This document shows, one piece after another, positions 1-56,943 of a stretch of 64,000 nt of DNA. Positions within the stretch are counted from its first letter, which is position 1, and each line of letters begins with the position of its first letter. The stretch comes from an uncultured Clostridia bacterium. GTDB taxonomy: Bacteria > Bacillota > Clostridia > TANB77 > CAG-508. The position numbers and the translations under genes are program-made. The notes under the pieces were generated by a model. It had not been told where the DNA came from. It made no database searches and saw nothing but the letters and a program-made list of their open reading frames with translations. The DNA is taken from NCBI GenBank assembly GCA_944386715.1, contig CALXCD010000002.1, forward strand, positions 12,869-76,868, read 5' to 3'.

Positions 1-584
1 ATTTATCATTAGATGACAGCAAAAAGCTTTTAGATGTTAGTTCTAATGAAGATAACAGAAATTGTGAACGTGACCATGCTATTCTTACCTTGTTTTTAAA
101 TTGTGGTTTACGTTTGTCTGAATTAGTGGGAATTAATTTACAGGATATTAATTTTGAAGATTGTAAATTAAATGTTATTGGGAAGGGAAATAAAGAAAGA
201 ACGATTTATTTAAATAAGGCTTGTATGAAAGCAATTGCTGATTATTTAGAAGTTCGTCCTAAAGAAGGGGTAAAAAAAGATAAAAAACTTTCTGACAAAG
301 CCTTGTTTTTGAGTGAAAGAAAAGAAAGAATTGGTAGAAGAACGGTTCAGTATATAGTGGATAAAGAATTATCATTAGCTGGATTAGATACCAAAAGATA
401 TTCTGTTCACAAATTAAGACATACAGCAGCTACTTTAATGTATCAATATGGGAATGTCGATATTAGAGCATTGCAGGTTTTGCTTGGTCATGAAAGTATT
501 TCTACTACTGAAATTTATACACATGTGGATAATGAACAAGTTCGTAATGCGGTTGAAAAAAATCCTTTAGCTATGTTAGATTGA
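1..584 (+). CDS. Tyrosine recombinase, XerC/XerD (phage-integrase) family; 5' end lies outside the window
   Basis: Frame 3 is open from base 3 to the TGA at 582-584. The translation RDHAILTLFLNCGLRLSEL ... HKLRHTAATLMYQ ... LLGHESISTTEIYTH shows the R / HxxR / Y catalytic pattern. Confidence 0.85.
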   Translation, partial: LSLDDSKKLLDVSSNEDNRNCERDHAILTLFLNCGLRLSELVGINLQDINFEDCKLNVIGKGNKERTIYLNKACMKAIADYLEVRPKEGVKKDKKLSDKALFLSERKERIGRRTVQYIVDKELSLAGLDTKRYSVHKLRHTAATLMYQYGNVDIRALQVLLGHESISTTEIYTHVDNEQVRNAVEKNPLAMLD

Positions 585-793: not shown

Positions 794-3439
794 TTATAAT
801 TGTTCTAATACAGTTTGTAACATTTCTTTATATTTAGCAAGTTTAGCTTTTTCTTCTTCAATTTTACTTTGAGGAGCTTTATTAACAAATCCTGGATTGC
901 TTAGCATTTTTTCACACCTAGCAACTTCTTTTTCTAACCTTATTTTTTCTTCTTCTAATCTTTTTCTTTCTTCTTCAAAATCTATTAATCCTTCTGCAGG
1001 AAGGTAAAATTCGATTCCTTCTTCTATGATATGAATAGCGTTTTCAGGGATATTATCTTTATTGTTTTGTATTTTCATACTATCTGCAAAAGCCAATTTT
1101 AAAAGCATTCCTTCTGATTCTTGTATTTCTTTCGTGTTATCTTGTGTTACTATAATTAATTTTGCTTTTTTACTTGGATGAATATGTTTTTCGTTTCTAA
1201 TATTTCTTATCTCTATTATCATTTTTTGTAATTTTTCTATTAATGCTTCTTCTTTATCAAAAGTAATATTCTCACTTTTGTTTGGCCAATCAGAAACCAT
1301 TAATTCTTTTTCATCCTCTGTTATTAGGCTACTATAAATTTCAGAAGTAACAAAAGGCATAAATGGATGTAGTAGTTTTAAAGAAGTACAAAAAACTTCA
1401 TTCAATACAAAAGATACTCTTGTTTTATCTTCTCTATCTTCCCCATTTAATCTTGTTTTTACCATTTCGATATACCAATTACAAAAATCATTCCAAATGA
1501 AATTATATATTTTGTCTAGTGCAATTCCTAAATCATAGTGTTCCATATTGTCTGTTATTTCTTCTACTAATTTGTTTAGTTTGTTAAGAATCCATTTATC
1601 TTCTAGTTTTAATGATTTGTCACTCATTTTTTTGAAAGAGATAACTTCTTCGTCTGTTACCATATTTTTCGTAATAAATTTAGCTGCATTCCATATTTTA
1701 TTTGCGAAATTAGAAGCTTGCTCTAATTTTTCTGGCATATAACGAATATCATTTCCCATCGTGGTACCAGATAATACAGAAAATCTTAAACTATCTGCTC
1801 CATATTGGTCTATTACTTCTATTGGGTCTACTCCATTTCCTAATGTTTTTGACATTTTTCTTCCTTGACTATCACGTACAATACCATGTATTAAAACATC
1901 TTGGAATGGTTTTTGTTTCATAACTTCTAATCCTGAGAATATCATTCTTGCTACCCAGAAGAAAATGATATCATATCCTGTTACTAATACATTAGTTGGA
2001 TAAAATGTTTTTAAGTCTTCTGCTTCTTGATTTGGCCATCCAAGTGTTGAAAAAGGCCATAGTGCAGAGCTAAACCAGGTGTCTAGTGTGTCTGGGTCTT
2101 GTTTAAAATTAGTACTTCCACATTTTTCACATTTTTCTGGCATTTTTTTAGCAACATGAATATGTCCACATTTTTGACAATAATATGCTGGTATTTGGTG
2201 ACCCCACCATAATTGTCTAGAAATACACCAATCTTGTATATTTTCCATCCAGCTAAAATATGTTTTTTCATATCTTTTAGGGATGAATTTAATTTCATCT
2301 TCTCTTACTGCTTTGATTGCTGGCTCAGCTAGTTCTTTCATTTTGACAAACCATTGTGTAGAAATTTTAGGTTCAATTGTATTTTTACATCTTTCGCATT
2401 TTCCCACATTATGTGTATAATGTTCTACTTTTACTAAATTTCCTAATTCTTCTAGTTTTTCTACGATTTTTTCTCTTGCTTCTAATAAGTCCATTCCCTG
2501 ATATTCTGGAACTAAATTTCCCATTTTAAAGTTTTCATCAAATACTTCTATGATTGGTAAATGATGTCTTAAACCTGCTTGGTAATCATTCATGTCGTGT
2601 GCTGGTGTGATTTTTACACATCCTGTTCCAAAATCTTTTTCTACAAATTCATCTGCAATAATTGGTATTTCTTTATTCATGATTGGTAAAATACAAGTTT
2701 TTCCAATTAAGTCTTGATATCTTTCATCTTCTGGATGAACAGCAACTGCAGTATCCCCTAACATGGTTTCTGGTCTAGTAGTTGCTACTGTAATATATCT
2801 ATTTTTCTCTCCTGTAATTTGATAACGAATATGCCATAAATGAGTATCTTCTTCATGATATTCTACTTCTGCATCAGAGATAGAAGTATTACAATTGGTA
2901 CACCAGTTTACCATTCTTTTTCCTTTATAAATAAATCCTTTGTTATATAAATTAACAAATTGTTCTAAAACGGCATCAGATAGTCCTTCATCTAATGTAA
3001 ATCTACGTCTTTCCCAATCACATGAACATCCTAATTTTCTTTGTTGATTTTGAATGGTTCCTCCATATAAATGTGTCCAATCCCATGCTTCTTCTATGAA
3101 TTTTTCTCTTCCTAAGTCTTGTTTTGTCTTTCCTTCTGCTTTTAATTTTTGTACTATTTTCATTTCTGTTGATATAGATGCATGGTCAGAACCAGGAAGC
3201 CATAAGGTATTATATCCTTGCATTCTTTTAAAACGAATTAGAATGTCTTGAAGTGTGCCATCTAAAGCATGCCCCATGTGTAATTTCCCAGTTACATTTG
3301 GTGGTGGCATCATAATACAATAACTTTCTTTGTTTTTGTCCATGCTAGGTTTGAAAAATCCTTCTTTTTCCCAATGTTCATATAAATCATCTTCAAAATT
3401 TTTTGGGTTATAAGTATCTGCTAATATTTTTTTACTCAT
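794..3439 (-). CDS. valS: Valine--tRNA ligase
   Basis: Class-I aaRS motifs PPPNVTGKLHMGH and KMSKT plus a C-terminal coiled coil. The likely start is M26 of the ORF (MSKKILADTYNP), preceded by AGGAGGAAG. A T-box leader lies upstream. Confidence 0.95.
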   Translation of the reverse strand: MSKKILADTYNPKNFEDDLYEHWEKEGFFKPSMDKNKESYCIMMPPPNVTGKLHMGHALDGTLQDILIRFKRMQGYNTLWLPGSDHASISTEMKIVQKLKAEGKTKQDLGREKFIEEAWDWTHLYGGTIQNQQRKLGCSCDWERRRFTLDEGLSDAVLEQFVNLYNKGFIYKGKRMVNWCTNCNTSISDAEVEYHEEDTHLWHIRYQITGEKNRYITVATTRPETMLGDTAVAVHPEDERYQDLIGKTCILPIMNKEIPIIADEFVEKDFGTGCVKITPAHDMNDYQAGLRHHLPIIEVFDENFKMGNLVPEYQGMDLLEAREKIVEKLEELGNLVKVEHYTHNVGKCERCKNTIEPKISTQWFVKMKELAEPAIKAVREDEIKFIPKRYEKTYFSWMENIQDWCISRQLWWGHQIPAYYCQKCGHIHVAKKMPEKCEKCGSTNFKQDPDTLDTWFSSALWPFSTLGWPNQEAEDLKTFYPTNVLVTGYDIIFFWVARMIFSGLEVMKQKPFQDVLIHGIVRDSQGRKMSKTLGNGVDPIEVIDQYGADSLRFSVLSGTTMGNDIRYMPEKLEQASNFANKIWNAAKFITKNMVTDEEVISFKKMSDKSLKLEDKWILNKLNKLVEEITDNMEHYDLGIALDKIYNFIWNDFCNWYIEMVKTRLNGEDREDKTRVSFVLNEVFCTSLKLLHPFMPFVTSEIYSSLITEDEKELMVSDWPNKSENITFDKEEALIEKLQKMIIEIRNIRNEKHIHPSKKAKLIIVTQDNTKEIQESEGMLLKLAFADSMKIQNNKDNIPENAIHIIEEGIEFYLPAEGLIDFEEERKRLEEEKIRLEKEVARCEKMLSNPGFVNKAPQSKIEEEKAKLAKYKEMLQTVLEQL

Positions 3440-3509
3440 TTTTCTTCCTCCTTTTTGTGGTAAGTTAAAAACATTATTTTTGCATGATGAGAAATTGTTT
3501 TTTCTATCA

Positions 3510-3765
3510 TACAAAAAGCTCGCCCCAATATAAGGGCGAGTTTAATTCTCACGGTACCACCTTAATTATTATTTTTCAATAATATCTTAATTAGCTTTTA
3601 ACGCAGCTCACACGGATATCTTACTTATATTTTCAGAATATCAACTAAAAAAGCTACCTTCTGTTTACCTTTTATTTAAGAAGCTTCCAGCCTAAGACTT
3701 CTATTCTCTAGAATTAAGTATAAACATACTCCTCTTTTTTCTTGTTTTTTATTATTGTGCCTTAA
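3510..3765 (-). promoter_or_regulatory. T-box leader (Val specifier) of valS
   Basis: On the minus strand: an AGAGA motif in stem I, and a specifier loop AAAAGGUAAACAG with the GUA codon at 3668..3666. The T-box sequence AAGGUGGUACCGUGAG is at 3563..3548. The terminator CTCGCCC-N8-GGGCGAG plus U-run is at 3540..3519. Confidence 0.85.
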
Positions 3766-6810: not shown

Positions 6811-7749
6811 TCATATAGCTTCCTTCAATTTTTTTATATATTCTATATCATCTATTTTTGAAATTGCAAAACATTTCTTTCCCAAATCTTTTAATGATGC
6901 TCCTATATGATACAGTTCTTTATTATCTATTACGATAAATCTATCATGAAACTTATTCGTCATTGCTACTTTTAAGGTTGGATATTGTTTATTAAATTTA
7001 TTTATATCCAATTTATTCAAATTACTATTTTGCGAAGTCAAAATCACAACTTTTACATTTTTATTTTTCTTTGATAACATTTTCAAAATACTATCATCTA
7101 TGTAATTATCAATAATTAATACTTTTTGTTTTGCTTTCTTTATAATATCTATAACTAAAATATATGCATCATAAATTTGTCCATCAAAAAATATGCTTTG
7201 TCTACATTCTGATTCTTGTTTTCTTTGCAATTCATCAAATACTTCGTCAAACTTCTTATCATGCTCTAACAATTGGTCTTTAATATTATTTATTTCTTGG
7301 AAAAATTGACCATTTGTAATTATAAATTTTCTCATTTCTATAAAAGCTTTCATAATGCTAATACTAACATTAACTGCTATGTCACTTTTTAGTAGCGCTG
7401 AAAGCATTGCTATTCCTTGTTCTGTAAATACATACGGCATATATCGTCTACCACCATAGTTTTGTTTTTCAAAACTTGAGGTGACAAATTGGCACCTCAA
7501 GTTTTGAAATTCTTTTTGTTCTAATTGAAAACAAAATTCCTTTGGAAATCTTTCAATATTTCTTTTTACTACACGATTTATATATTTAGTTTCACAATGA
7601 TATAAATTTGCTACATCACTATCTAGCATTACTTGTTTTCCTCTAATTGTATAAATCAAATTTTTTATGTTTTCTGTTTCATATTTTACTACATCTGATT
7701 CTTTATTTACTAGTATAATATTGTTGTCTTCTTTTTCCATAATTATCAC
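6811..7749 (-). CDS. ORF6N-domain DNA-binding protein with a C-terminal PLD-like (HxR variant of HKD) domain
   Basis: N-terminal region: IRGKQVMLDSDVANLY ... FPKEFCFQL ... NLRCQFVTSS ... GGRRYMPYVFTEQGIAMLS. C-terminal region: KVLIIDNYID ... FHDRFIVID ... GASLKDLG. Confidence 0.8.
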   Translation of the reverse strand: MIIMEKEDNNIILVNKESDVVKYETENIKNLIYTIRGKQVMLDSDVANLYHCETKYINRVVKRNIERFPKEFCFQLEQKEFQNLRCQFVTSSFEKQNYGGRRYMPYVFTEQGIAMLSALLKSDIAVNVSISIMKAFIEMRKFIITNGQFFQEINNIKDQLLEHDKKFDEVFDELQRKQESECRQSIFFDGQIYDAYILVIDIIKKAKQKVLIIDNYIDDSILKMLSKKNKNVKVVILTSQNSNLNKLDINKFNKQYPTLKVAMTNKFHDRFIVIDNKELYHIGASLKDLGKKCFAISKIDDIEYIKKLKEAI

Positions 7750-12824: not shown

Positions 12825-13451
12825 CTATTTTCTATTTTTATAAAATAAATATGACGAATATATTGTAGTTAAAACAGCACAAACTATAAGTATTATCATT
12901 AATATAAAAGACACTATTGAATTTAGAAATGCTGAAATTATAAATAGTAATCCCATTATCACAAAGAAATATCCTGCTGGTCTTTTTACTTTTTCCCAAA
13001 AATCTTTTCTTACATAATACATTTGTAATTTATTGATTTCAGTTTTGGGCATATAATTTCCTATAATCATAAAAATTATTCCCAATGTTATACATACAAT
13101 TATTCTCATATCTAATTCAATTCCTGCACCATAAGCTAACATTGTTAAATAACATACCATTCCAATTATAGGTATTATCCATTTATAAATGGTTATATAT
13201 TTCTTATTTTGCTTTTTTTGTTCCATACAATCACTTGATATACAACAAATTATTTGTAATGCTGTCATAAGTAGTGGAATACCAAACAAAGCAAATTCTT
13301 TAGGTGCAAAACTGTTAGGTTCATTGTTTAGTCCAAAGTGTACTGCCATTTGTTCTGGTAATTGATTATATAAAATTACTCCAAATATTGTTGGTACTAT
13401 GCACATTAAAGTTGTTATAATTAAAATTTTCCAATCAATTCTTTTCTTCAT
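12825..13451 (-). CDS. SdpI/YhfL-family membrane protein (DUF1648 + SdpI-like)
   Basis: Multi-TM protein directly after an SdpR-type regulator. The likely start MKKRIDWK at 13451 overlaps the regulator stop by 17 nt. Confidence 0.7.
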   Translation of the reverse strand: MKKRIDWKILIITTLMCIVPTIFGVILYNQLPEQMAVHFGLNNEPNSFAPKEFALFGIPLLMTALQIICCISSDCMEQKKQNKKYITIYKWIIPIIGMVCYLTMLAYGAGIELDMRIIVCITLGIIFMIIGNYMPKTEINKLQMYYVRKDFWEKVKRPAGYFFVIMGLLFIISAFLNSIVSFILMIILIVCAVLTTIYSSYLFYKNRK

Positions 13452-13734
13452 TGTTATTATCTCCCTTCTTATCATCTTTTCCAAATTGATAAATCCAAAC
13501 TAGTATCTCTTCAAAAACAGATGTGTTTAGTTCATAATAAATATAATTTTTATATTTCTCTTCTTTTACTAAATCTGCCTTCTTTAAATAGGATAAATGA
13601 TAAGATACTGATGCGTTTGTTATATTAAATTTATCTGCTATATCACCAGCTGTCATCTTTCCTTTTCTTAACATTTCTAGTATATTTCTTCTGACAGGGT
13701 CTGATATAGCTTTTAATGTTTCTGACATTCCCAT
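13435..13734 (-). CDS. ArsR/SdpR-family autorepressor
   Basis: KAISDPVRRNILEMLRKGKMTAGDIADKFNITNASVSYHLSYLKKADLV, a winged-HTH region of ArsR/SmtB type. Confidence 0.88.
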   Translation of the reverse strand: MGMSETLKAISDPVRRNILEMLRKGKMTAGDIADKFNITNASVSYHLSYLKKADLVKEEKYKNYIYYELNTSVFEEILVWIYQFGKDDKKGDNNNEEKN

Positions 13735-13749
13735 ATACTCACCTTCACT

Positions 13750-13825
13750 ATTTAGATATTTGTCTAAATAGATTTTACTATTTTAATTTTATAATGTCAA
13801 TAGATATTTAGAGATTTATCTAAAT
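13750..13825. promoter_or_regulatory. Two palindromic operator candidates ATTTAGA-N6-TCTAAAT upstream of the SdpR-like gene
   Basis: ATTTAGATATTTGTCTAAAT at 13750-13769 and ATTTAGAGATTTATCTAAAT at 13806-13825, 16-90 nt upstream of the regulator start. Confidence 0.6.
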
Positions 13826-14001
13826 AGTTTTATAAATAAAAAAATACCTATATTTCAAACTGTTTTTTACATTTATACAAGTCAATTTCCTTGAATTTTA
13901 CGATAAAATATAGTATAATTTAATTTGAATTATGTATTTGAAACCATAAAAGCAATCACTTGGAGGTTTCAAAGCCTCCAAAAAATTTTAGGAGGTTTGA
14001 C

Positions 14002-20663: not shown

Positions 20664-21635
20664 CTAACCTTTTTCAAATATGATTAAAGTTACACTGTTC
20701 CAAAGCATCTTCCAATAGAAATTTTTTGAATCTTTATTCTCATTTTCTAATTCTTCTTGTTTAGATGATTGTTCCACTTCCTGAACACTATTGGTTGTAG
20801 ATAATAGTTCTGGGTGTTCTTGATAAATTTTATTTAATTGGTTTCGATTTGCTTCTTGTTCTTCTTGATATGTTTTTTCTTCTTCTGCATTTCTTTTATA
20901 AACATCAACTGTATATATTTTTTGAGTTTCTCCTCCTTTTGAGGTAACTGTAATAGATATGGTATTGTTCCCTTCTTTTAAATCTTTATTTCCTATGACA
21001 TTAACTGTATTCTTATCGTTTTGTGGTACTGCTAATATTTTTATATCTTCTGTTGCATTAGAAATTTCTGCCTTATAATTAGTTATATTAGCATCAAATG
21101 GTGGTGTTAATAATACATTTTCTATCGCTAGGTTTTCTAAATTTGCATTTATTTCCTCCGCTTCTGTTGTACTTGTACTAACATTGTTATCTTCTCCAAT
21201 GGAAATCGTAACATTTTGAAACTCTGTTTCTATTTCATTTCCATTTGCATCATAAAATTCTCCATTTAATACAAAATTACAAATACCTTCTCCTATGGCT
21301 TTCCATTTAAAATTTGCAATAATGCCGTCTATTTCATTTAGTCCGCCAGTTTCATCATACCAAACTTTTGTTACTTTATTTCCGCTAATAGAAGTATTTT
21401 CATCTTGCTTAATATATTCCACTTTCGTATCATCAAAATAGATTTCTAGGTTATATGCAGCACATTTACTACCTTGTATCAAAATATTGATTTGGGTTTC
21501 CTCTTCTAATTTTATATTGTTTTTTGTAGTGGTTGCTGTTACTTTCGCACTTGCTGCAATACTATTAGAAAAAGAAAGTACAATAAAACTTAAGGTTAAT
21601 ACTATAATTTTATATTTTTTCATTTTAAAATTCAT
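20664..21635 (-). CDS. Cohesin-like + cadherin-like beta-sandwich surface protein
   Basis: Signal peptide. The N-terminal module (QINILIQGSKCAAYNLEIYFDDTKVEY...) is cohesin-like. The middle segment NLAIENVLLTPPFDANITNYKAEI...YTVDVYK is a cadherin-like beta-sandwich. The start could be 21635 or 21623. Confidence 0.7.
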   Translation of the reverse strand: MNFKMKKYKIIVLTLSFIVLSFSNSIAASAKVTATTTKNNIKLEEETQINILIQGSKCAAYNLEIYFDDTKVEYIKQDENTSISGNKVTKVWYDETGGLNEIDGIIANFKWKAIGEGICNFVLNGEFYDANGNEIETEFQNVTISIGEDNNVSTSTTEAEEINANLENLAIENVLLTPPFDANITNYKAEISNATEDIKILAVPQNDKNTVNVIGNKDLKEGNNTISITVTSKGGETQKIYTVDVYKRNAEEEKTYQEEQEANRNQLNKIYQEHPELLSTTNSVQEVEQSSKQEELENENKDSKNFYWKMLWNSVTLIIFEKG

Positions 21636-21708
21636 TCCTTTCTTACTTTGCTCTAAACACATACATTGATTTTTGTTGGAATTCATAATTGTCTTATTAT
21701 GATATTAG

Positions 21709-21797
21709 AAAATCTGATATATAGCTATTTGAAAATCAAGACCCAGATTGTTACACCCCAGCTATGTTTTGATTAAAAATAGCTATATATCAGGTTT
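21709..21797. repeat. Conserved-core hairpin, copy E1
   Basis: Stem AAAATCTGATATATAGCTATTT.. / ..AAATAGCTATATATCAGGTTTT, with the core at 21737-21771. Confidence 0.9.
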
Positions 21798-21821
21798 TTA
21801 TTAATTGTTATTAATATTATT

Positions 21822-21980
21822 GTTGCAATTCACAGCCGTTTTATATAATATTAGAAAAGCCTGATATATAGATATTTGAAAATCAAGACCCGGATTGTTA
21901 CGCCCCAGCTATGTTTTGATTAAAAATAGCTATATATCAGGCTTTTCTGAATTATTAACTTATTTACTGTGAATTGTAAC
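21822..21980. repeat. Conserved-core hairpin with an outer GTTRCAATTCACAG inverted repeat, copy E2
   Basis: Outer IR GTTGCAATTCACAG (21822-21835) / CTGTGAATTGTAAC (21967-21980), inner hairpin 21853-21948, core 21884-21918. Confidence 0.9.
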
Positions 21981-22007
21981 ATATTATTCTTTGCAAACTA
22001 TTCTTTT

Positions 22008-24270
22008 TTATTGCTCTATTGTTTTTAGCCCCAAAATATGTCTTTGTATTAGTAATAAATCAACAGATGTTGGTTTCTTTCCATTTTTATTGATATTTCC
22101 GGCCTTTTGGTAAATAGGTTCTAGGAATTGAAGTTCTAGAATATGTCTTTGTAAAACTAATAAATCCACACTATTTATTCTTCCATCTCCATTGACATCT
22201 CCATATAAAATAAATTCATAACTTTTTAATAAATTTTCGTTTTCTTTTATTTGTAGTTTACAGTTGGTTCCTACTTTATCTTCATTTGACAAAGCTTCAT
22301 TTTTACTATTTACGATTTCTGTTTCTAAATTGGTTATGATATTTTTCTTTATTTCTGAAACCGTATTGTTGTTGTCAGGAATTCCTGTTATATAGATTTC
22401 TTGATGTTTTAGTGGTTCTTGAAAAATAATTTCATTTTCCCCTAAATTTCTTGTTACAATAACATGACATTCTGTTTGGATATTATTATTTTCTTCTGAA
22501 ATAACTTGTATTTTGCTATTTCCTTCTATGAGAGCTGTAATTATTCCATTTTCATTTATTGTAAGCACATCCTCATTTTCTACTTTATATAGGATATTAG
22601 GGTTATCCGCATCTTCTGGTTGTACTTTAGCATTTAAAGAATAAGTTTCTCCCACAGAAAGATAAATTTCGCTTTCTTCTAATTCTATTCCTGTTACTTT
22701 ACTTGTTACCTGAATAGATATTGTTCCCTTTACATCGCTACCTTCTGCTTTTGCTGTAATAACAGCTGTTCCTGCACGTAGTGCTGTGATATTCCCTAAA
22801 TTATCTACCATGACAATAGAAGAATCACTAGAAGACCATTGTATTTTATTATCCTTTGCTTCTACTGGAAGGATTTCTATCTCTATTTTCGCCTTTTCCC
22901 CTTTAGAAATTATTGGATTGTCTATTTTTAAATGGATTTGTTCAATTGGCATAATAGGAGCGGTTTCTGTTACATAGTTTTGAAAAATATATCCAATGAT
23001 TCCATTTTCTAATTTTACTTTGTCCCATTTTTCTCCATTTTGAATACCTTTTCCTATTCTTGTCATTTTATCCCATTGATTTACTTGTGTAATGACCTCA
23101 TAAGAGGTACTTGGACCTGTCCTGATATTCACTTTTGAGCCATTAGAATATACAGTTGTATTATCTGTTTGATAATCTGATTCTAAAATATTAGGATTGC
23201 TTGTTGCAATCTCAGGCATATTATTGTAAATAGGAATAATAAAGTGCATTGGGGAATCTATTAATCCATTATTTTTATATCCTTGATAAATCGATTTTGA
23301 TTCACTATATGGTGCTAAAACATTTGTCATGTATTGATGCCAAAATAGTTCTCCTCCTTTTGTATCTGTTACATGAAATTTTTGAAAATAAACTGTATTT
23401 TGTCCTACATTGATATAACTAGAACCAATAAAAATTCCTCCACCTGTAATAGCTTTTTCTTTATTATCCCATGGAATTAGGTATTTATTTTTTGTTTCTT
23501 GACTAGCACCTTTTCCATCTCTTGCATATTTTAATCCATTGATAATCGCTCCCATTGGCTCTGCTGAACTTGTAGCACCAATATTATAAAAATTATATAA
23601 TCCCTTAAATCCTTCTACTGTTCCGCTAATAGAACTGTGAGATAAGAATGGTCCTACTTCTTGTTTGATACGGGATGCTAAATGATAAGGGCTTACCTTG
23701 GAGGTAATTGCTGCTTTTAATATTAAATCAGCATAAGTTTCTTCCATATTGTAATTATTTCCGGTTGCTATCCAGATAGCTTACTTTTTGCCTATAAAAT
23801 TCTGTTCCATATAATATTTTTTCAATTCCTTCTATTTGACTCATATTACTATCATAAGACAATGTCTCAAATTGAAAAATTCTAACTTCATTTAAAAAGT
23901 TTCTTGGGTCCATACAATATTCTACTGCTTTTTTGGATGCATCTACCCATCCAGCATCTACTTCTACATTATATTCTCCTGGTTTTGTATTTTTCCAATT
24001 ATCGGAATAGTTTTTAGGTACTAAATTTTTTCCAAATATGTTTTCTTGTTCTATTACATAATTCCAATCCAAATTCGTATATAGGGCTGTAAAACTCCAA
24101 TTAGGATGTTTGTTTTTTAATTCTTGCAAATAAGGTTGATAGGTACTCGGAAAGATTTCAATATCCTTACTTTGCTTTTCAGAGGCATGTGTAAAAAACA
24201 TCATACTGAAAAACAAGATGACTAATACACTACATAGAATAAAATATTTGTATTTTTGTAAAAATTTCAT
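22008..24270 (-). CDS. Secreted N-acetylglucosaminidase (GH73-type) with SH3-like, two Big_2-like modules and a C-terminal type-I dockerin; split by an apparent frameshift
   Basis: ORF 23755-24270 carries the signal peptide and N-domain. ORF 22008-23747 carries the catalytic region (VSPYHLASRIKQE), the Ig-like repeats and the dockerin DVNGDGRINSVDLLVLQRHIL / NKNGKKPTSVDLLLIQRHIL. The ORFs are 7 nt apart in different frames. Confidence 0.8.
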
Positions 24271-24920: not shown

Positions 24921-24984
24921 TTGCTTTTCCTCCTCGTGCTTTCTAGTTACAACTTTCTTTTTATTATATATTAAAGTTAGATTA

Positions 24985-25075
24985 AAAAACCTGATATATA
25001 GCTATTTGAAAATCAAGACCCGGATTGTTAAGCACCAGCTATGTTTTGATTAAAAATAGCTATATATTAGGTTTT
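24985..25075. repeat. Conserved-core hairpin, copy E3
   Basis: Stem AAAAACCTGATATATAGCTATTT.. / ..AAATAGCTATATATTAGGTTTTT, with the core at 25014-25048. A degenerate outer motif CTTAGTGAATTAGTAAC lies at about 25092-25108. Confidence 0.9.
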
Positions 25076-25128
25076 TATAAATTGTTAGTATCTTAGTGAA
25101 TTAGTAACGTTTTCTAAAAATTATGTGT

Positions 25129-33483: not shown

Positions 33484-34155
33484 ATGGGGAAATTTGATTC
33501 TATTTTAAAAAGTCAAACTGCAAAAAAGTATTATTCTTCTCATGTAGAAGATTTGTATAGAAAAGCACATATCTCAGGTGAGGTAGATTATGATTATTTT
33601 GAAAATTTAAATGTACAAGATTTACAAGATTATAATAAAAAGAAAAAATATAATTATGATTTAATATCTTTATGGGCAATTTTAGAAATGAGAAAATATC
33701 TTGATTTTCAATTAGGCAATACCTATAATCCTTATTTCTTAGAAGATAATAGCTTAGTGCCTATTAAAAATTTGCCAGATTATGATTATATGCCAGAAAA
33801 AGCAAGAGTGCAATCTTTGTTGGATATTAAATTTGTGAAAAAATTTATTCTAGAAGGGATTACTTTTAGTAATGTTTATATAGCAACTTATGAAATTATG
33901 GATATGAATAATGTTTTTAGACCTTTTGTCCAATTTTTTACAAAAAATGAATTCGGAAAATTTGTTGAAATTGCTTATGGATATGATTCTAATGATAATG
34001 GCAATGTGGAATTATTTATTCCTTCTTTTAATTATCCTGTATTTTTGACTCCAAAAGGATTTATTGGACTTCCTCTTTCAGGAAAATTTATTAAATTGAA
34101 TGTATATGATTACATTACAGAGCATGATATTGAAAAATTATTAAAGAATAGCTAA
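33484..34155 (+). CDS. Hypothetical protein
   Basis: The ATG at 33484 is preceded by AAAGGTGA. The earlier ATG at 33439 lies inside a TGTGATATAAT extended -10 box. I recognise no motif. Confidence 0.6.
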   Translation: MGKFDSILKSQTAKKYYSSHVEDLYRKAHISGEVDYDYFENLNVQDLQDYNKKKKYNYDLISLWAILEMRKYLDFQLGNTYNPYFLEDNSLVPIKNLPDYDYMPEKARVQSLLDIKFVKKFILEGITFSNVYIATYEIMDMNNVFRPFVQFFTKNEFGKFVEIAYGYDSNDNGNVELFIPSFNYPVFLTPKGFIGLPLSGKFIKLNVYDYITEHDIEKLLKNS

Positions 34156-34350
34156 TATTGCCAAGGGGACGTTCCTTTTTGGCAACTTTTATATCTTACT
34201 TTATTCAAAAAAGTTAATATATTAATATTGGCAGACAAAGACCCGGATTGTTATGCCACAGTTAAGTTTTTGTCTAAAATATTAATATATTAACTTTTAT
34301 TTTAAAAATATAAGTTGCCAAAAAGGAACGTCCCCTTGGCAATATTAGCT
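34150..34350. repeat. Nested palindromic element, copy E4 of the conserved-core hairpin family
   Basis: A perfect 38-bp inverted repeat at 34150-34187 / 34313-34350 (AGCTAATATTGCCAAGGGGACGTTCCTTTTTGGCAACT). Inner stem 34213-34294, core 34236-34272. Confidence 0.9.
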
Positions 34351-34388
34351 ATAAAAAAAGTAGCTGATTAAATATCGCTACTTTCTTT

Positions 34389-50529: not shown

Positions 50530-51390
50530 ATGAAAAATGAACTTATAAAAACAGAAATAATAGTAAAGGATACACCTATAAGTGTTATTAGAATTGATAA
50601 AACAGATTTTATATCATTAACTGATTTAGCTAAATATCAAAATTCAAGCGATCCATCTTTTACCGTAAAAAACTGGTTAAGAAGAGTTAGCACAATTGAT
50701 TATATAGGTCTTTGGGAACAGTTGCATAATTCTAATTTTAATTTGGTCGAATTCGACCAAATTAAAACTGAATATGGAAAAAATTCTTTTGCAATGTCTC
50801 CTACACAATGGATAAAAAGGACTAATAGTATTGGGATTATTGCAAAAGGTGGCAGATATAGCATTGGAACATTTGCACATCCAGATATTGCTTTTGAATT
50901 TGCAAGTTGGCTAAGTCCAGAATTTAAGCTATATTTAATAACTGAATTTGAGCGATTAAAAATTAATGAAGCATATCAAAATAAAATTGACTGGTCTGTA
51001 AAAAGGGAACTATCTAAAACTAATTATATTATTCATACAGATAGTATAAAAGAATTTATTGTTCCAACTCTAACTGAAAAACAAAAACAATATGTATATG
51101 CAAGTGAAGCAGATGTTTTAAATGTTGCTTTATTTGGAATGACAGCTAAAGAATGGAGAGATAAAAATCCTAATTTAGATGGTAATATTCGAGATTATAC
51201 AGACATTTTACATTTGGTTGTTTTAGCCAATCTTGAAAACTTAAATGCTGAAATGATAACAAGTGGAATTTCTCAAAGTGAAAGAATTGTAAAATTGAAT
51301 GACACAGCTAAAAAGCAATTAGAATTATTAAAAAATAGTAGTAGTATTCGTAGGTTAGAAAAAATGGATGAGAAATTAAAATTAGTGTAA
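50530..51390 (+). CDS. KilA-N domain-containing protein
   Basis: ISVIRIDKTDFISLTDLAKYQ ... NWLRRVSTIDYIGLWEQLHN ... GTFAHPDIAFEFASWLSPEFKLYL. Confidence 0.8.
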   Translation: MKNELIKTEIIVKDTPISVIRIDKTDFISLTDLAKYQNSSDPSFTVKNWLRRVSTIDYIGLWEQLHNSNFNLVEFDQIKTEYGKNSFAMSPTQWIKRTNSIGIIAKGGRYSIGTFAHPDIAFEFASWLSPEFKLYLITEFERLKINEAYQNKIDWSVKRELSKTNYIIHTDSIKEFIVPTLTEKQKQYVYASEADVLNVALFGMTAKEWRDKNPNLDGNIRDYTDILHLVVLANLENLNAEMITSGISQSERIVKLNDTAKKQLELLKNSSSIRRLEKMDEKLKLV

Positions 51391-52540: not shown

Positions 52541-53935
52541 TTAAATTTCTTCAACAGTATTTGATGTATTTCTATTATTTGGCAATAACATAATATCTTT
52601 TTTTCTATAAACTGATAATATGATTGCTAAACTTATCATATTGATAACTAAACTACTTCCTCCATAGGATACAAATGGTAAATTAAAGTTTGCTTCCATT
52701 CCTAAATTTAAATTCATGAGAATGTTAAATATGCTTTGTAAAATGAACATACTAGCAATTCCGATTATTAATAATTTACCATATAAATCTTTTATTTGGA
52801 TAGAATTGATAATTAATTTTACACTAAATAATATAATTAATGCTACTACTCCTATTGCTACTATCCATCCATAATGTGCTAGGATAGATATAAATGCATA
52901 ATTGGTGCCTTCATCAAATAATGTAATAGCATTACTCATATCTTCTGCTTCTCCAAAACTTTGTGCTGATTGGATAATTAAATTTCGATTGATTCCTAAC
53001 CAGCCTCCTCCTTGTGGGTCATTTTCAGGATGAAACCAAGTTTCTATTCTTTCTATCGTATATGGAGCATTTCCGATATAGAAAAATATACTTAGTAATG
53101 TTAGTAAAATAACAATACTCCACAAAATAAAAATTTTTTTCTTTCTATTTTCTTCTGTTTTCCATATCTTAACAGTCCCTAGTATTAAATAAATACTTCC
53201 TAAAATTAAAATAGAGACTTTAGATGGTATGATAAAAAAAAGTAATAAAGATAATATGCTTAATCCAATTATTTTTACCAAATTTATATTTATTTTTATG
53301 TTATTATCATCTAATATTTTTTGTATTTTACTTTCTTGATTTGTATTCATTAAAAATCCAATAAAAGCTAATATATATAATGGCATCGCAATTGTACTTG
53401 CAGATATGGTAACTCCTAACCCTAAAGATAAATATGGGATTCCATTAATATGGGCACCAAATAATAAGGTAACTATTATGATAATTGTTGCAAGTAGGTA
53501 AAAATATTTGCTATATTTTTTTAATTTTGTATAATCGAAAAAATATATGAAGATGCTTGCTATTATACCTATTACGAAAGCTACCATAAATTTTAGCATA
53601 TAGTTTAATTGTTCACCTGTTGTAACTGTATTGGTTGTCTTTATCCATGCAATGAGAAATCCAAAACATATTAAAACTCCGATGATTAGCACTAATTTCC
53701 AGTCTAGCTTTGGTCTATGAATTTTATTTAATTTTTTTCCTATTTCCACACTATCTCCCATTTGCTTAATGGCTTCACCTTCTGCTAACTCTTCTTGTAA
53801 CCCTTCTTGCATATAGTTTTCTTTGATTTCTTCTATATGATTTTTTAATTCTTCTGAAATACTTTCCCTAATTGGCTTATATCTTATCTGTTCACATACA
53901 GAATTTAGAAAATCCTTAATTTGCAAAAGAAACAC
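52541..53935 (-). CDS. FtsW/RodA/SpoVE-family protein fused to an N-terminal PadR-operon prefix domain
   Basis: N-terminal soluble helix bundle (NSVCEQIRYKPIRESISEELKNHIEE), then about 10 TM segments ending NLPFVSYGGSSLV. It overlaps the PadR stop. Confidence 0.8.
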   Translation of the reverse strand: MFLLQIKDFLNSVCEQIRYKPIRESISEELKNHIEEIKENYMQEGLQEELAEGEAIKQMGDSVEIGKKLNKIHRPKLDWKLVLIIGVLICFGFLIAWIKTTNTVTTGEQLNYMLKFMVAFVIGIIASIFIYFFDYTKLKKYSKYFYLLATIIIIVTLLFGAHINGIPYLSLGLGVTISASTIAMPLYILAFIGFLMNTNQESKIQKILDDNNIKININLVKIIGLSILSLLLFFIIPSKVSILILGSIYLILGTVKIWKTEENRKKKIFILWSIVILLTLLSIFFYIGNAPYTIERIETWFHPENDPQGGGWLGINRNLIIQSAQSFGEAEDMSNAITLFDEGTNYAFISILAHYGWIVAIGVVALIILFSVKLIINSIQIKDLYGKLLIIGIASMFILQSIFNILMNLNLGMEANFNLPFVSYGGSSLVINMISLAIILSVYRKKDIMLLPNNRNTSNTVEEI

Positions 53936-54254
53936 CTCCTAAAACTTGATTTATTCCATTACTAAATATTTTCCATTCTTCCTGTTTTTCTTTTAATGTG
54001 TTTTTCCCTTTCTTGGTTATGGCATAATATTTTCTGTTTTTTCCAGTTGTATTATCCCAATAAGATGTTATTAAATCATTTTCTTCTAAAGAATGTAATA
54101 TGGGATATAGTGTTCCTTCTTTTAATTCAAATACATTTTCTGATTTTTCTTTTAGTCTTTTTATCATCTCATAACCATACATGTTTTCTTCTTTTAATAA
54201 ATTTAAGACTAATAGAGTTGTGCTTCCTTTTAATAATTCTTTGCTGATTTTCAA
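53916..54254 (-). CDS. PadR-family transcriptional regulator
   Basis: LLKGSTTLLVLNLLKEENMYGYEMIKRLKEKS...LKEGTLYPILHSLEENDLI. Confidence 0.9.
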   Translation of the reverse strand: MKISKELLKGSTTLLVLNLLKEENMYGYEMIKRLKEKSENVFELKEGTLYPILHSLEENDLITSYWDNTTGKNRKYYAITKKGKNTLKEKQEEWKIFSNGINQVLGGVSFAN

Positions 54255-54377
54255 ATTTATCCCTCCTTATATAAAAAAATATACCTAGATATCCGATGTA
54301 TTTTTGTACATTGTATATCTAGGTATTGTTTTTGTCAATAATTTTCTAAAAAATTATAAAAAAATCTTGCAATATTT

Positions 54378-54536
54378 GTTACTATTCACAGTAAATAAGT
54401 TAATAATTCAGAAAAGCCTGATATATAGATATTTGAAAATCAAGACCCGGATTGTTACGCCCCAGATATGTTTTGATTAAAAATAGCTATATATCAGGCT
54501 TTTTTAATATTGTATAAAACAGCTGTGAATTGTAAC
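54378..54536. repeat. Conserved-core hairpin with the outer GTTAC(T/A)ATTCACAG inverted repeat, copy E5 (hairpin flipped relative to flanks)
   Basis: Outer IR 54378-54391 / 54523-54536, inner hairpin 54410-54505, core 54441-54475. Confidence 0.9.
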
Positions 54537-54542
54537 TAATAT

Positions 54543-55190
54543 TTATCTAGCATCATCTTTTTTTATGTGTTGCATTATTTGCCTTTTTCTTTCTTGAAAA
54601 GTTTCGTATACTTTATTTATTGTTTCAAATTCATCATCTTTTTTATCAGCATGTAATGCTCTTTGCCATTTAGTTGTTATCCATTTATCATAATATTCTA
54701 ATTTATCTGTGTTTTCTAATTCTTCTAATTGGCATAATAATTCATAATCATCTTGGTGAAAAATAGTAGCTTTTTCTTCTATTCCTCTTGCTATATAAAT
54801 ACCTGCCGGATATATATATAGTCTTTTTGTTTTCACCATTTCTAGCATTTTTTTTTCTACCTGTTCTTGCATTTCTTCTTCTGTCATTCCTATGTCATAA
54901 CTAAAATAATGAGATGGGTCGTTTCTTCTTGGAGAAGGGATGTCATTTAAATCTACAAAACGGTAAAATTGTGTATATAACTGTGTAGCTCTTTTGACAT
55001 TTTCTTTCCAAAAAGGCTCTTTCGGAGTTGTATATTCTTGTCTTAAAGAGTAATTTTTATCTTTTGCCTTTTTTTGATGTAATTCATGGTTAGCAAAATA
55101 TATCATGGCTTCTAGTACTTCCTCTCTATTGTCATAGCCATAATAAAATTTTTCTTCTAATTTTTTTTCTAATTTCTTTTTATTAACCAT
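54543..55190 (-). CDS. Hypothetical protein
   Basis: 215-aa charged, soluble ORF located 18 nt downstream of rfbB. I recognise no motif. Confidence 0.6.
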   Translation of the reverse strand: MVNKKKLEKKLEEKFYYGYDNREEVLEAMIYFANHELHQKKAKDKNYSLRQEYTTPKEPFWKENVKRATQLYTQFYRFVDLNDIPSPRRNDPSHYFSYDIGMTEEEMQEQVEKKMLEMVKTKRLYIYPAGIYIARGIEEKATIFHQDDYELLCQLEELENTDKLEYYDKWITTKWQRALHADKKDDEFETINKVYETFQERKRQIMQHIKKDDAR

Positions 55191-56789: not shown

Positions 56790-56814
56790 TTTTATTTATC
56801 TCTCCTTTTTTGCT

Positions 56815-56943
56815 ATTGGTTCCAGGTTTGGATGCCAATTTTTTGGCATCCAAACCTGGAACCAATGCCAACTTTTTGGCATTTCAAACCTGGAACCAAT
56901 GCCAACTTTTTGGCATTTCAAACCTGGAACCAATGCCAACTTT
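56815..56943. repeat. Block of four 33-34-bp units (one inverted, three direct) between rfbA and rfbC
   Basis: The unit is TTGGCAT(C/T)(C/T)AAACCTGGAACCAATGCCAACTTT, at 56843-56875, 56876-56909 and 56910-43. The inverted copy at 56815-56838 forms a 24-bp perfect hairpin with 56843-56866. Confidence 0.92.

Follow-up and report, generated by a model that had tools for sequence, protein, structure and literature searches.

The window analysed here, by which we mean the whole 64,000-nt stretch of DNA, has a G+C content of about 28%, and its relatives are exclusively MAGs of uncultured gut Clostridia. Its proteins include cohesin, dockerin, sortase, MutS and ValRS, and a T-box leader (3529-3751, minus strand, 94.8 bits) lies upstream of the valyl-tRNA synthetase gene (794-3514). 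At the left end, the C-terminal part of a XerC/XerD-like tyrosine recombinase gene (3-584, plus strand) runs past the end of the window, and its stop codon falls within the outer inverted repeat of the element at 577-796 described below. Two lone genes with phage-associated ORF6N and KilA-N domains (6811-7749 and 50530-51390) stand amid housekeeping genes. Several intergenic regions carry palindromes of their own. An imperfect palindrome with 40-nt arms that are 75% complementary (13747-13828) lies directly upstream of an ArsR-type HTH gene (13435-13734), and a 27-nt inverted repeat (54274-54333), probably a PadR operator, overlaps a near-consensus minus-strand promoter (TTGACA-17-TACAAT, 54338-54310) upstream of a PadR-family gene (53916-54254). 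Between two dTDP-rhamnose pathway genes, a hairpin repeat family other than the one studied here occupies 56800-56940, where it forms three tandem AAAAAGTTGGCATTGGTTCCAGGTTTGAAATGCCAA units and one inverted unit; the orthologous site in BRZ_PK bin13 (L058:2028-2162) has in its place a solo copy of the hairpin H, to which we now turn.

The element at 54378-54536 consists of a left and a right terminal inverted repeat (GTTACTATTCACAG, 54378-54391, plus strand; GTTACAATTCACAG, 54523-54536, minus strand), two sub-terminal halves termed a and b, and a central hairpin module, H (54417-54498, plus strand, loop core 54442-54475), which scores 108.7 bits on the plus strand and 46.5 on the minus strand. 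It is flanked by 8-bp target-site duplications, CAATATTT (54370-54377) and TAATATTT (54537-54544), identical at 7 of 8 positions. In this copy of H, about 22 bp form the basal stem, followed by a 3x2 internal loop and 6-9 bp of apical helix; the family consensus gives a loop of about 29 nt, whereas folding 54417-54498 by itself as DNA (-20.2 kcal/mol, z -9.3) gives one of 23 nt. The parts follow one another as half b, H, half a. In the second element of this kind, at 21822-21980 (H at 21860-21941), they follow the commoner order of half a, H, half b, and the duplication ATATTATT (21814-21821 and 21981-21988) is perfect (8/8).

A covariance model built from 68 copies of H finds exactly six in the window, at 649-740 on the minus strand and at 21708-21799, 21855-21946, 24985-25076, 34208-34299 and 54412-54503 on the plus strand. 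On the loop strand their scores are about 93-109 bits, against 47-51 on the opposite one, and all six are intergenic. The copy at 21708-21799, older and in a degenerate shell, forms a tandem with the 21822 element. That at 24985-25076 sits in a degenerate a/b-like shell (about 24947-25118) and has the same orientation in 10 metagenome contigs. The two remaining copies belong to elements with a second type of shell, at 577-796 (H at 649-740), where the shell arms contain the hairpin TTGCCAAAGGGGACGTTCCTTTTTGGCA, and at 34148-34352 (H at 34208-34299), of which alleles without the H part exist; the latter element had been overlooked in the sequence-only reading. According to that reading, three further copies also appeared to share the 21822 configuration. 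For 21709-21798 and 24985-25076 the match is a weak one, to degenerate shells, and the 577-796 shell is of another type, so that its configuration is not comparable; the outer GTTRCAATTCACAG repeat is found in the window at the 21822 and 54378 copies only.

The arms of the second shell type (577-618/755-796 and 34148-34192/34308-34352) have in common the hairpin TTGCCAA(A)GGGGACGTTCCTTTTTGGCA. The 8-10 bp outside it form locus-specific repeats that are inverted, not direct (TAGATTGA/TCAATTTA at one locus and ATAGCTAATA/TATTAGCTAT at the other) and that take in the stop codons of the adjoining genes. Alleles L164, L168 and L172 of a second-shell locus retain one hairpin, consistent with deletion between 7-bp TTGGCAA repeats; for the short allele of the 34148-34352 element, we rejected a true empty site and prefer such a deletion.

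The relation between the 54378 and 21822 elements is a flip of H with respect to its shell. Written as A-H-B, the 21822 copy consists of A = GTTGCAATTCACAGCCGTTTTATATAATATTAGAAAAG, the 82-nt H and B = CTTTTCTGAATTATTAACTTATTTACTGTGAATTGTAAC, and the proposal that the 54378 copy reads rc(B)-H-rc(A) holds on realignment: its left flank GTTACTATTCACAGTAAATAAGTTAATAATTCAGAAAAG matches rc(B) at 38 of 39 positions and its right flank CTTTTTTAATATTGTATAAAACAGCTGTGAATTGTAAC matches rc(A) at 34 of 38. H itself differs at a single base out of 82 (CCCCAGCT vs CCCCAGAT) and, as had been proposed, keeps its absolute orientation, with the asymmetric loop, the mismatch of AGAT in the 5' arm and AGCT in the 3' arm, and the bulge all on the plus strand. 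The flanks can be told apart. In global alignment of A and rc(B), like-with-like comparisons score 30-39 and cross comparisons 15.5-17.5, and the local scores of the 54378 flanks against those of 21822 are 34.5 and 41 when the pairing is swapped, as against 13.5 and 15.5 when it is not. The sequence common to A and rc(B) is limited to the outer 14 bp and the inner 7 bp, and the central 17-18 nt of halves a and b are unrelated; the outer repeat is thus not simply symmetric. Independent metagenome assemblies contain the 54378 arrangement again (contigs L002-L006), and contig L133 the 21822 arrangement. Since the same arrangements recur in independent assemblies and the flanks are distinguishable, the flip is real and not an assembly artefact.

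The 159-bp A-H-B unit is a composite MITE, mobile as a whole. Its 14-bp terminal inverted repeats, GTTRCAATTCACAG, bound the two window copies and about 20 related ones on either side, and the 8-bp target duplication, 8/8 at 21822 and 7/8 at 54378, is intact to the same extent (8/8 or 7/8) in 10 of the 20 copies examined. At the 21822 locus, precisely the 159-bp element and one AATAATAT are missing from alleles L132 and L137, which read GAATAATAT directly followed by CAATAAC, while the site is filled in the window and in L133, with AATAATAT duplicated. An exact empty site together with a filled allele carrying the duplication means that the whole composite is a MITE that moved recently. The family thus combines terminal inverted repeats, a duplication of fixed length and a precise empty site with short, non-coding, multi-copy elements: those bearing H measure 141-159 bp, and the roughly 80 copies of H all lie outside ORFs of at least 100 aa.

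A metagenome scan for the same ends spaced 30-60 nt apart yielded 21 loci with H-less MITEs of 60-85 bp, which have identical ends, 8-bp duplications and unrelated short interiors. Their hosts range from 24 to 45% G+C and come from diverse metagenomes, and H was absent from 132 kb of contigs bearing them. Because these H-less MITEs have the same ends on contigs devoid of H, the shell family extends beyond H, which is a passenger picked up in a single Clostridia clade. No parent IS emerged from the DNA examined, as a relaxed search for end pairs 0.4-4 kb apart returned only pairs of separate MITEs with no enclosed transposase; in the window, no transposase was found. A literature search on the shell end sequence found nothing relevant, BLAST of the composite against plasmids and phages gave no match, and scans of viral contigs turned up neither the H loop nor any MITE of the family, whether H-less or of composite size. 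A solitary shell end is present at L032:2172 among ABC-transporter genes. On another contig, two H-less MITEs of the shell family, in direct orientation and each with its own 8-9 bp duplication, flank a PD-(D/E)XK nuclease family 'transposase' gene (L147:6346-7542; PF12784, E 1.9e-42).

H is a hairpin of 82-92 nt. About 80 copies of it, spread over at least 13 species-level MAGs of uncultured gut Clostridia, came out of a genome scan combined with a relaxed local search. From the outside inwards, A/T runs lead into a basal stem, with subfamily differences in its outer 4-8 bp, and then into a conserved stem rich in ATATAT; the 5' arm next has a small asymmetric internal loop, and an apical helix of 5-6 bp carries the loop of about 29 nt (GACCCGGATTGTnnnnCCCYAGMTATGTT), the best conserved part of H. 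The stem covaries, with 97.7% of cells paired and compensatory change in 15 of 24 pairs; none of 500 shuffles, and no slid control, came near these values. Loop conservation across at least 13 species-level genomes, together with covarying stems, points to a protein or nucleic-acid partner. The orientation of H with respect to its flanking genes is unbiased among the 80 copies (21 opposed, 16 co-directional, 15 divergent and 10 convergent), which makes an RNA role dependent on transcript polarity unlikely, and we have set aside an RNA function tied to host transcription on this ground. Counts of G-U vs A-C mismatches are too small to assign a strand to H. A scan of the window with Rfam 15 at gathering score returned the T-box leader only and nothing for H, and a permissive scan of 21600-22100 gave sub-threshold matches to generic hairpins (miRNA precursors) only. 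Scans of the element for promoter and terminator consensus stayed at chance level, and among the genes beside H copies we found no recurrent protein family. Resemblances to CodY, Rex, sigma-54, IHF, dif, the R388 nic site and a 16S rRNA segment, and a MITE-end-like motif in the loop, were considered and dropped, since each either falls on positions that vary in the family alignment or is only partial. Neither the composite nor H appears to have been described so far.

Other arrangements of H occur as well. In BRZ_PM bin58, three H units, some of them truncated, are arrayed head to tail with a period of 95-97 bp (L048:5977-6262 and L055:5221-5502). In BRZ_PK bin13, a composite element lies at the centre of an older H-like palindrome (L026:860-1150; AACTTTTGGTATATAGCTAGTTTTAATAAAA and, further on, its complement), and the orthologous site in a Hadza MAG (L093:6195-6335) carries a decayed H with a different, shortened loop.

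Typing the shell halves of each copy from the outer end inwards showed that each shell family has one dominant arrangement with rare exceptions. In the a/b family, the type seen in the window, (a,b) is dominant (21885 and, weakly, 21738 and 25015), with 54442 and L035 as (b,a) exceptions. The homologous c/d family has 6-8 copies of (c,d), a weakly assigned (d,c) copy at L113+5120 and a (d,d) copy at L033-5425; in e/f, about nine (e,f) copies stand beside a moderately supported (f,e) copy at L031+159; and in g/h, about six (g,h) copies stand beside a strong (h,g) exception at L081+4531, which on its left scores 27 for h vs 16.5 for g and on its right 35 for g vs 19 for h. Besides the window type, two shell types thus include copies with H flipped against the shell, and for a third the case is less clear.

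L035, the other (b,a) isoform, lies at another locus in another species-level genome (BRZ_RS bin5). As it occupies a different locus with its own duplication (7/8), the flipped isoform is heritable and able to transpose. Compared with the window, its arms show a paired double substitution in each arm (CCTGCTCTATAG/CTATAGAGCAGG vs CCTGATATATAG/CTATATATCAGG), and the variants GTTGAT, GTGGAT and GTTAAT are found among related H copies; the paired substitutions in L035, a paralogous copy, are the signature of arm homogenisation. At L039:134-225, the left and right arms come from two different H subfamilies. In natural populations, H is also a place of recombination and breakage. At the 21822 locus, six of 10 contigs have a hybrid single element, explained as the outcome of deletion between the tandem H copies (21708-21799 and the H at 21860), and in L139 a deletion at this locus begins in the loop; L007, L001 and L008 likewise have deletions that start from the hairpin tip. 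In L007 (ERZ2916437), a truncated H, with a junction of AATCAAAACATAG and ATGTATGTG, links two regions: on one side stand a 215-aa gene and the 54378 element's left half, on the other the upstream region of a cadherin-like gene at about 21650. The link reflects either a deletion of 32.6 kb, with a co-oriented H copy at each end, or an assembly made chimeric by the repeat.

Our preferred reading, to which we give slightly better than even odds (roughly 0.55), is that the flip results from occasional inversion across H's own inverted repeat and is not a genetic switch, in a composite MITE with an H core, both isoforms of which can transpose. The shell belongs to a widespread MITE family with GTTRCAATTCACAG ends, 8-bp duplications and the two unlike sub-terminal halves a and b, with the H module placed at its centre; the composite transposes as one unit, and the sole difference between the two window copies, as isoforms, is which way the H core points with respect to a and b. 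Exchange inside the symmetric outer stem of H and the adjoining A/T runs (18-19 bp on each side) would invert the spacer. The candidate routes are replication template switching between the arms, intramolecular recombination, and gene conversion from an oppositely oriented copy, for which heterology would be confined to the loop of about 29 nt. All three would invert the spacer and carry the inner-arm asymmetries along. The flip would be rare, heritable and on an evolutionary scale, leaving both isoforms transposable.

What we see of the arms fits such an exchange. The rare A·G mismatch stays 5' of the loop in both copies, so the exchanged segment would include the inner arms, and the breakpoints would consequently fall within the 18-19 bp symmetric block (AGAAAAGCCTGATATATAG / CTATATATCAGGCTTTTCT). 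Among the routes, template switching or recombination is favoured, because either would explain the paired multi-base compensatory changes (L035 vs the window, and the GTTGAT/GTGGAT/GTTAAT series), the symmetric (d,d) copy and chimeric combinations of halves, and the deletions that begin at the hairpin tip. Template switching between the arms of inverted repeats leads both to arm homogenisation and to spacer inversion (PMC8604942; PMC8794818), and, going by the citation of Elbeyioglu et al. (2017) in PMC10969869, in-situ inversion of Correia MITEs has been reported. Inversion in situ is a step that we infer, as each sampled locus shows a single orientation. The window copies are more alike in H (81/82) than in shell half a (34/38), and this could speak for a more recent arrival or a conversion of H, and against a flip in situ. 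Moreover, since there are shells without H, and H is found both alone and in shells of unrelated types, H got to the centres of shells by some route that lies outside the explanation of the flip, as does the conserved loop with its function.

That route leads to the rival which survives best, namely that H is a mobile module that inserts either way round at the centre of a palindrome or the tip of a hairpin, the two isoforms being independent insertions into empty shells. The sequence-only reading had offered an independent module of this kind as one of two options, and the modularity of H has been borne out: MITEs with identical ends but no H exist, solo H copies stand in tight intergenic spaces (L022, L112, L060 and L058:2061-2152), H is central in at least three unrelated shell types, and nesting at palindrome centres recurs (L026). 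Hairpins with a conserved loop and covarying stems are, in addition, typical recognition sites of HUH nucleases. However, the mobile unit demonstrated is the whole A-H-B composite, and the empty shells that such insertion would need occur in other organisms. Across 409 kb of H-bearing genomes, no a/b, c/d or e/f shell without H was found, and the sole candidate is a decayed g/h remnant (L090:540-606), ambiguous since deletion between TTTT repeats explains it equally well. Target duplications are lacking at the solo H copies, and no neighbouring gene was found to recur. Both window isoforms have the same rare AGAT/AGCT arm mismatch and identical junctions, and symmetric (d,d) and chimeric arms are expected from exchange within H, not from insertion. 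We thus consider independent insertion an unlikely source of the two isoforms, if one to be taken seriously. More doubtful still is a stronger form of the same idea, in which H would be an undescribed self-mobile hairpin whose loop is the recognition or nicking site of an enzyme, for instance one acting on single-stranded DNA; it would colonise hairpin tips (MITE centres, terminators) in either orientation, and the isoforms would be its insertion footprint.

The other option of the sequence-only reading was an invertible segment recombining within its own arms. Its geometry and the recurrence of flips agree with what we found, and with our preferred reading of occasional inversion; an active switch does not. 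A programmed inverton, flipped at its arms by a site-specific recombinase and altering the transcript or regulatory region of a neighbour, would have a fitting shape in H, where an 18-19 bp perfect inverted repeat forms the outer stem around an asymmetric core, and the XerC/D-like recombinase gene ending at 584 does so within the outer repeat of the 577-796 element. But no mixture of orientations is seen at orthologous loci, with one orientation per locus in up to 26 independent contigs with an orientable H from many samples (about eight reaching the loop at 54378, 10 near-identical ones at 24985 and eight H-bearing ones at 21822), these being consensus assemblies of close-relative strains at each of the three loci, in which a low-frequency inversion would be missed. 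No invertase or recombinase lies beside the 21822 or 54378 element, the Xer-like fragment at 3-584 being the sole recombinase of the window; five of the six window copies thus have no adjoining recombinase, and the Xer-like gene resembles the housekeeping dif recombinase. With promoter signals no higher than chance and the 80 copies unbiased in orientation to their flanking genes, a programmed switch is very improbable. Least probable of all, and in our assessment already refuted, is a trivial flip from effectively symmetric flanks or from misassembly at the repeat: the flanks do have symmetry in their outer 14 bp and inner 7 bp, and contigs do break or chimerise at H (L007; L117-L121), but the unrelated central 17-18 nt of a and b, the flank scores given above and the identical arrangement in independent assemblies contradict it.

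If occasional inversion is the right reading, the composite would be a natural example of a MITE that captured a second structured module, and the module's own inverted repeat would yield flip/flop isoforms, hybrids and deletions in wild gut populations. The use of this lies in repeat annotation and in understanding assembly breaks in AT-rich Clostridia MAGs, and no new principle is involved.

Among known systems, the REP/BIME and REPIN sequences resemble H in being intergenic hairpin repeats, often just downstream of genes, that form mosaic or nested arrays in both orientations. In REPINs, however, the arms are conserved and the spacer is variable, whereas in H the loop is most conserved and the basal stem varies; moreover, H sits in a MITE that makes target duplications, and no RAYT gene was seen beside its copies. 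We therefore rejected a REP/REPIN identity with RAYT (5' GTAG arms), given the reversed conservation pattern and the lack of a recurrent neighbouring gene family. An integron attC identity was likewise rejected, since the central part is conserved in H but variable in attC, and the copies are dispersed singly between housekeeping genes. The terminal hairpins of parvoviruses and poxviruses (flip/flop) are also imperfect palindromes that exist in two inverted-complement forms with respect to adjoining unique sequence, but they stand at the ends of linear genomes, undergo hairpin transfer at each replication and occur in both forms in equal amounts, whereas H is chromosomal and internal, with one orientation per locus. 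Invertons, for their part, have inverted repeats bracketing an asymmetric intergenic segment, as H does, but H differs in showing no population heterogeneity, no dedicated invertase and no relation of orientation to neighbouring genes.

Closest to the flip is template switching at quasipalindromes, which predicts compensatory multi-base changes and inversion of an asymmetric spacer with breakpoints in the arms, both of which are seen in H (PMC8604942, PMC8794818), although the evidence for it comes mostly from yeast, primates and E. coli reporter assays, and recombination or conversion gives the same product. Closest to the composite are the Correia elements of Neisseria, which are likewise short, non-coding, high-copy and intergenic, with terminal inverted repeats, target duplications, insertion polymorphism and, as in the composite, alternative combinations of end types. 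They differ in their ends (26 bp vs the 14 bp GTTRCAATTCACAG here), in their duplication (TA vs 8 bp) and in their host (Neisseria vs uncultured Clostridia), so that we rejected identity with a Correia element and regard the resemblance as functional only; furthermore, the whole Correia element flips between its terminal repeats, whereas here a nested internal hairpin flips. By analogy, then, the composite would behave like a Correia-type MITE with an internal quasipalindrome undergoing spacer inversion, and the flip itself follows from known processes.
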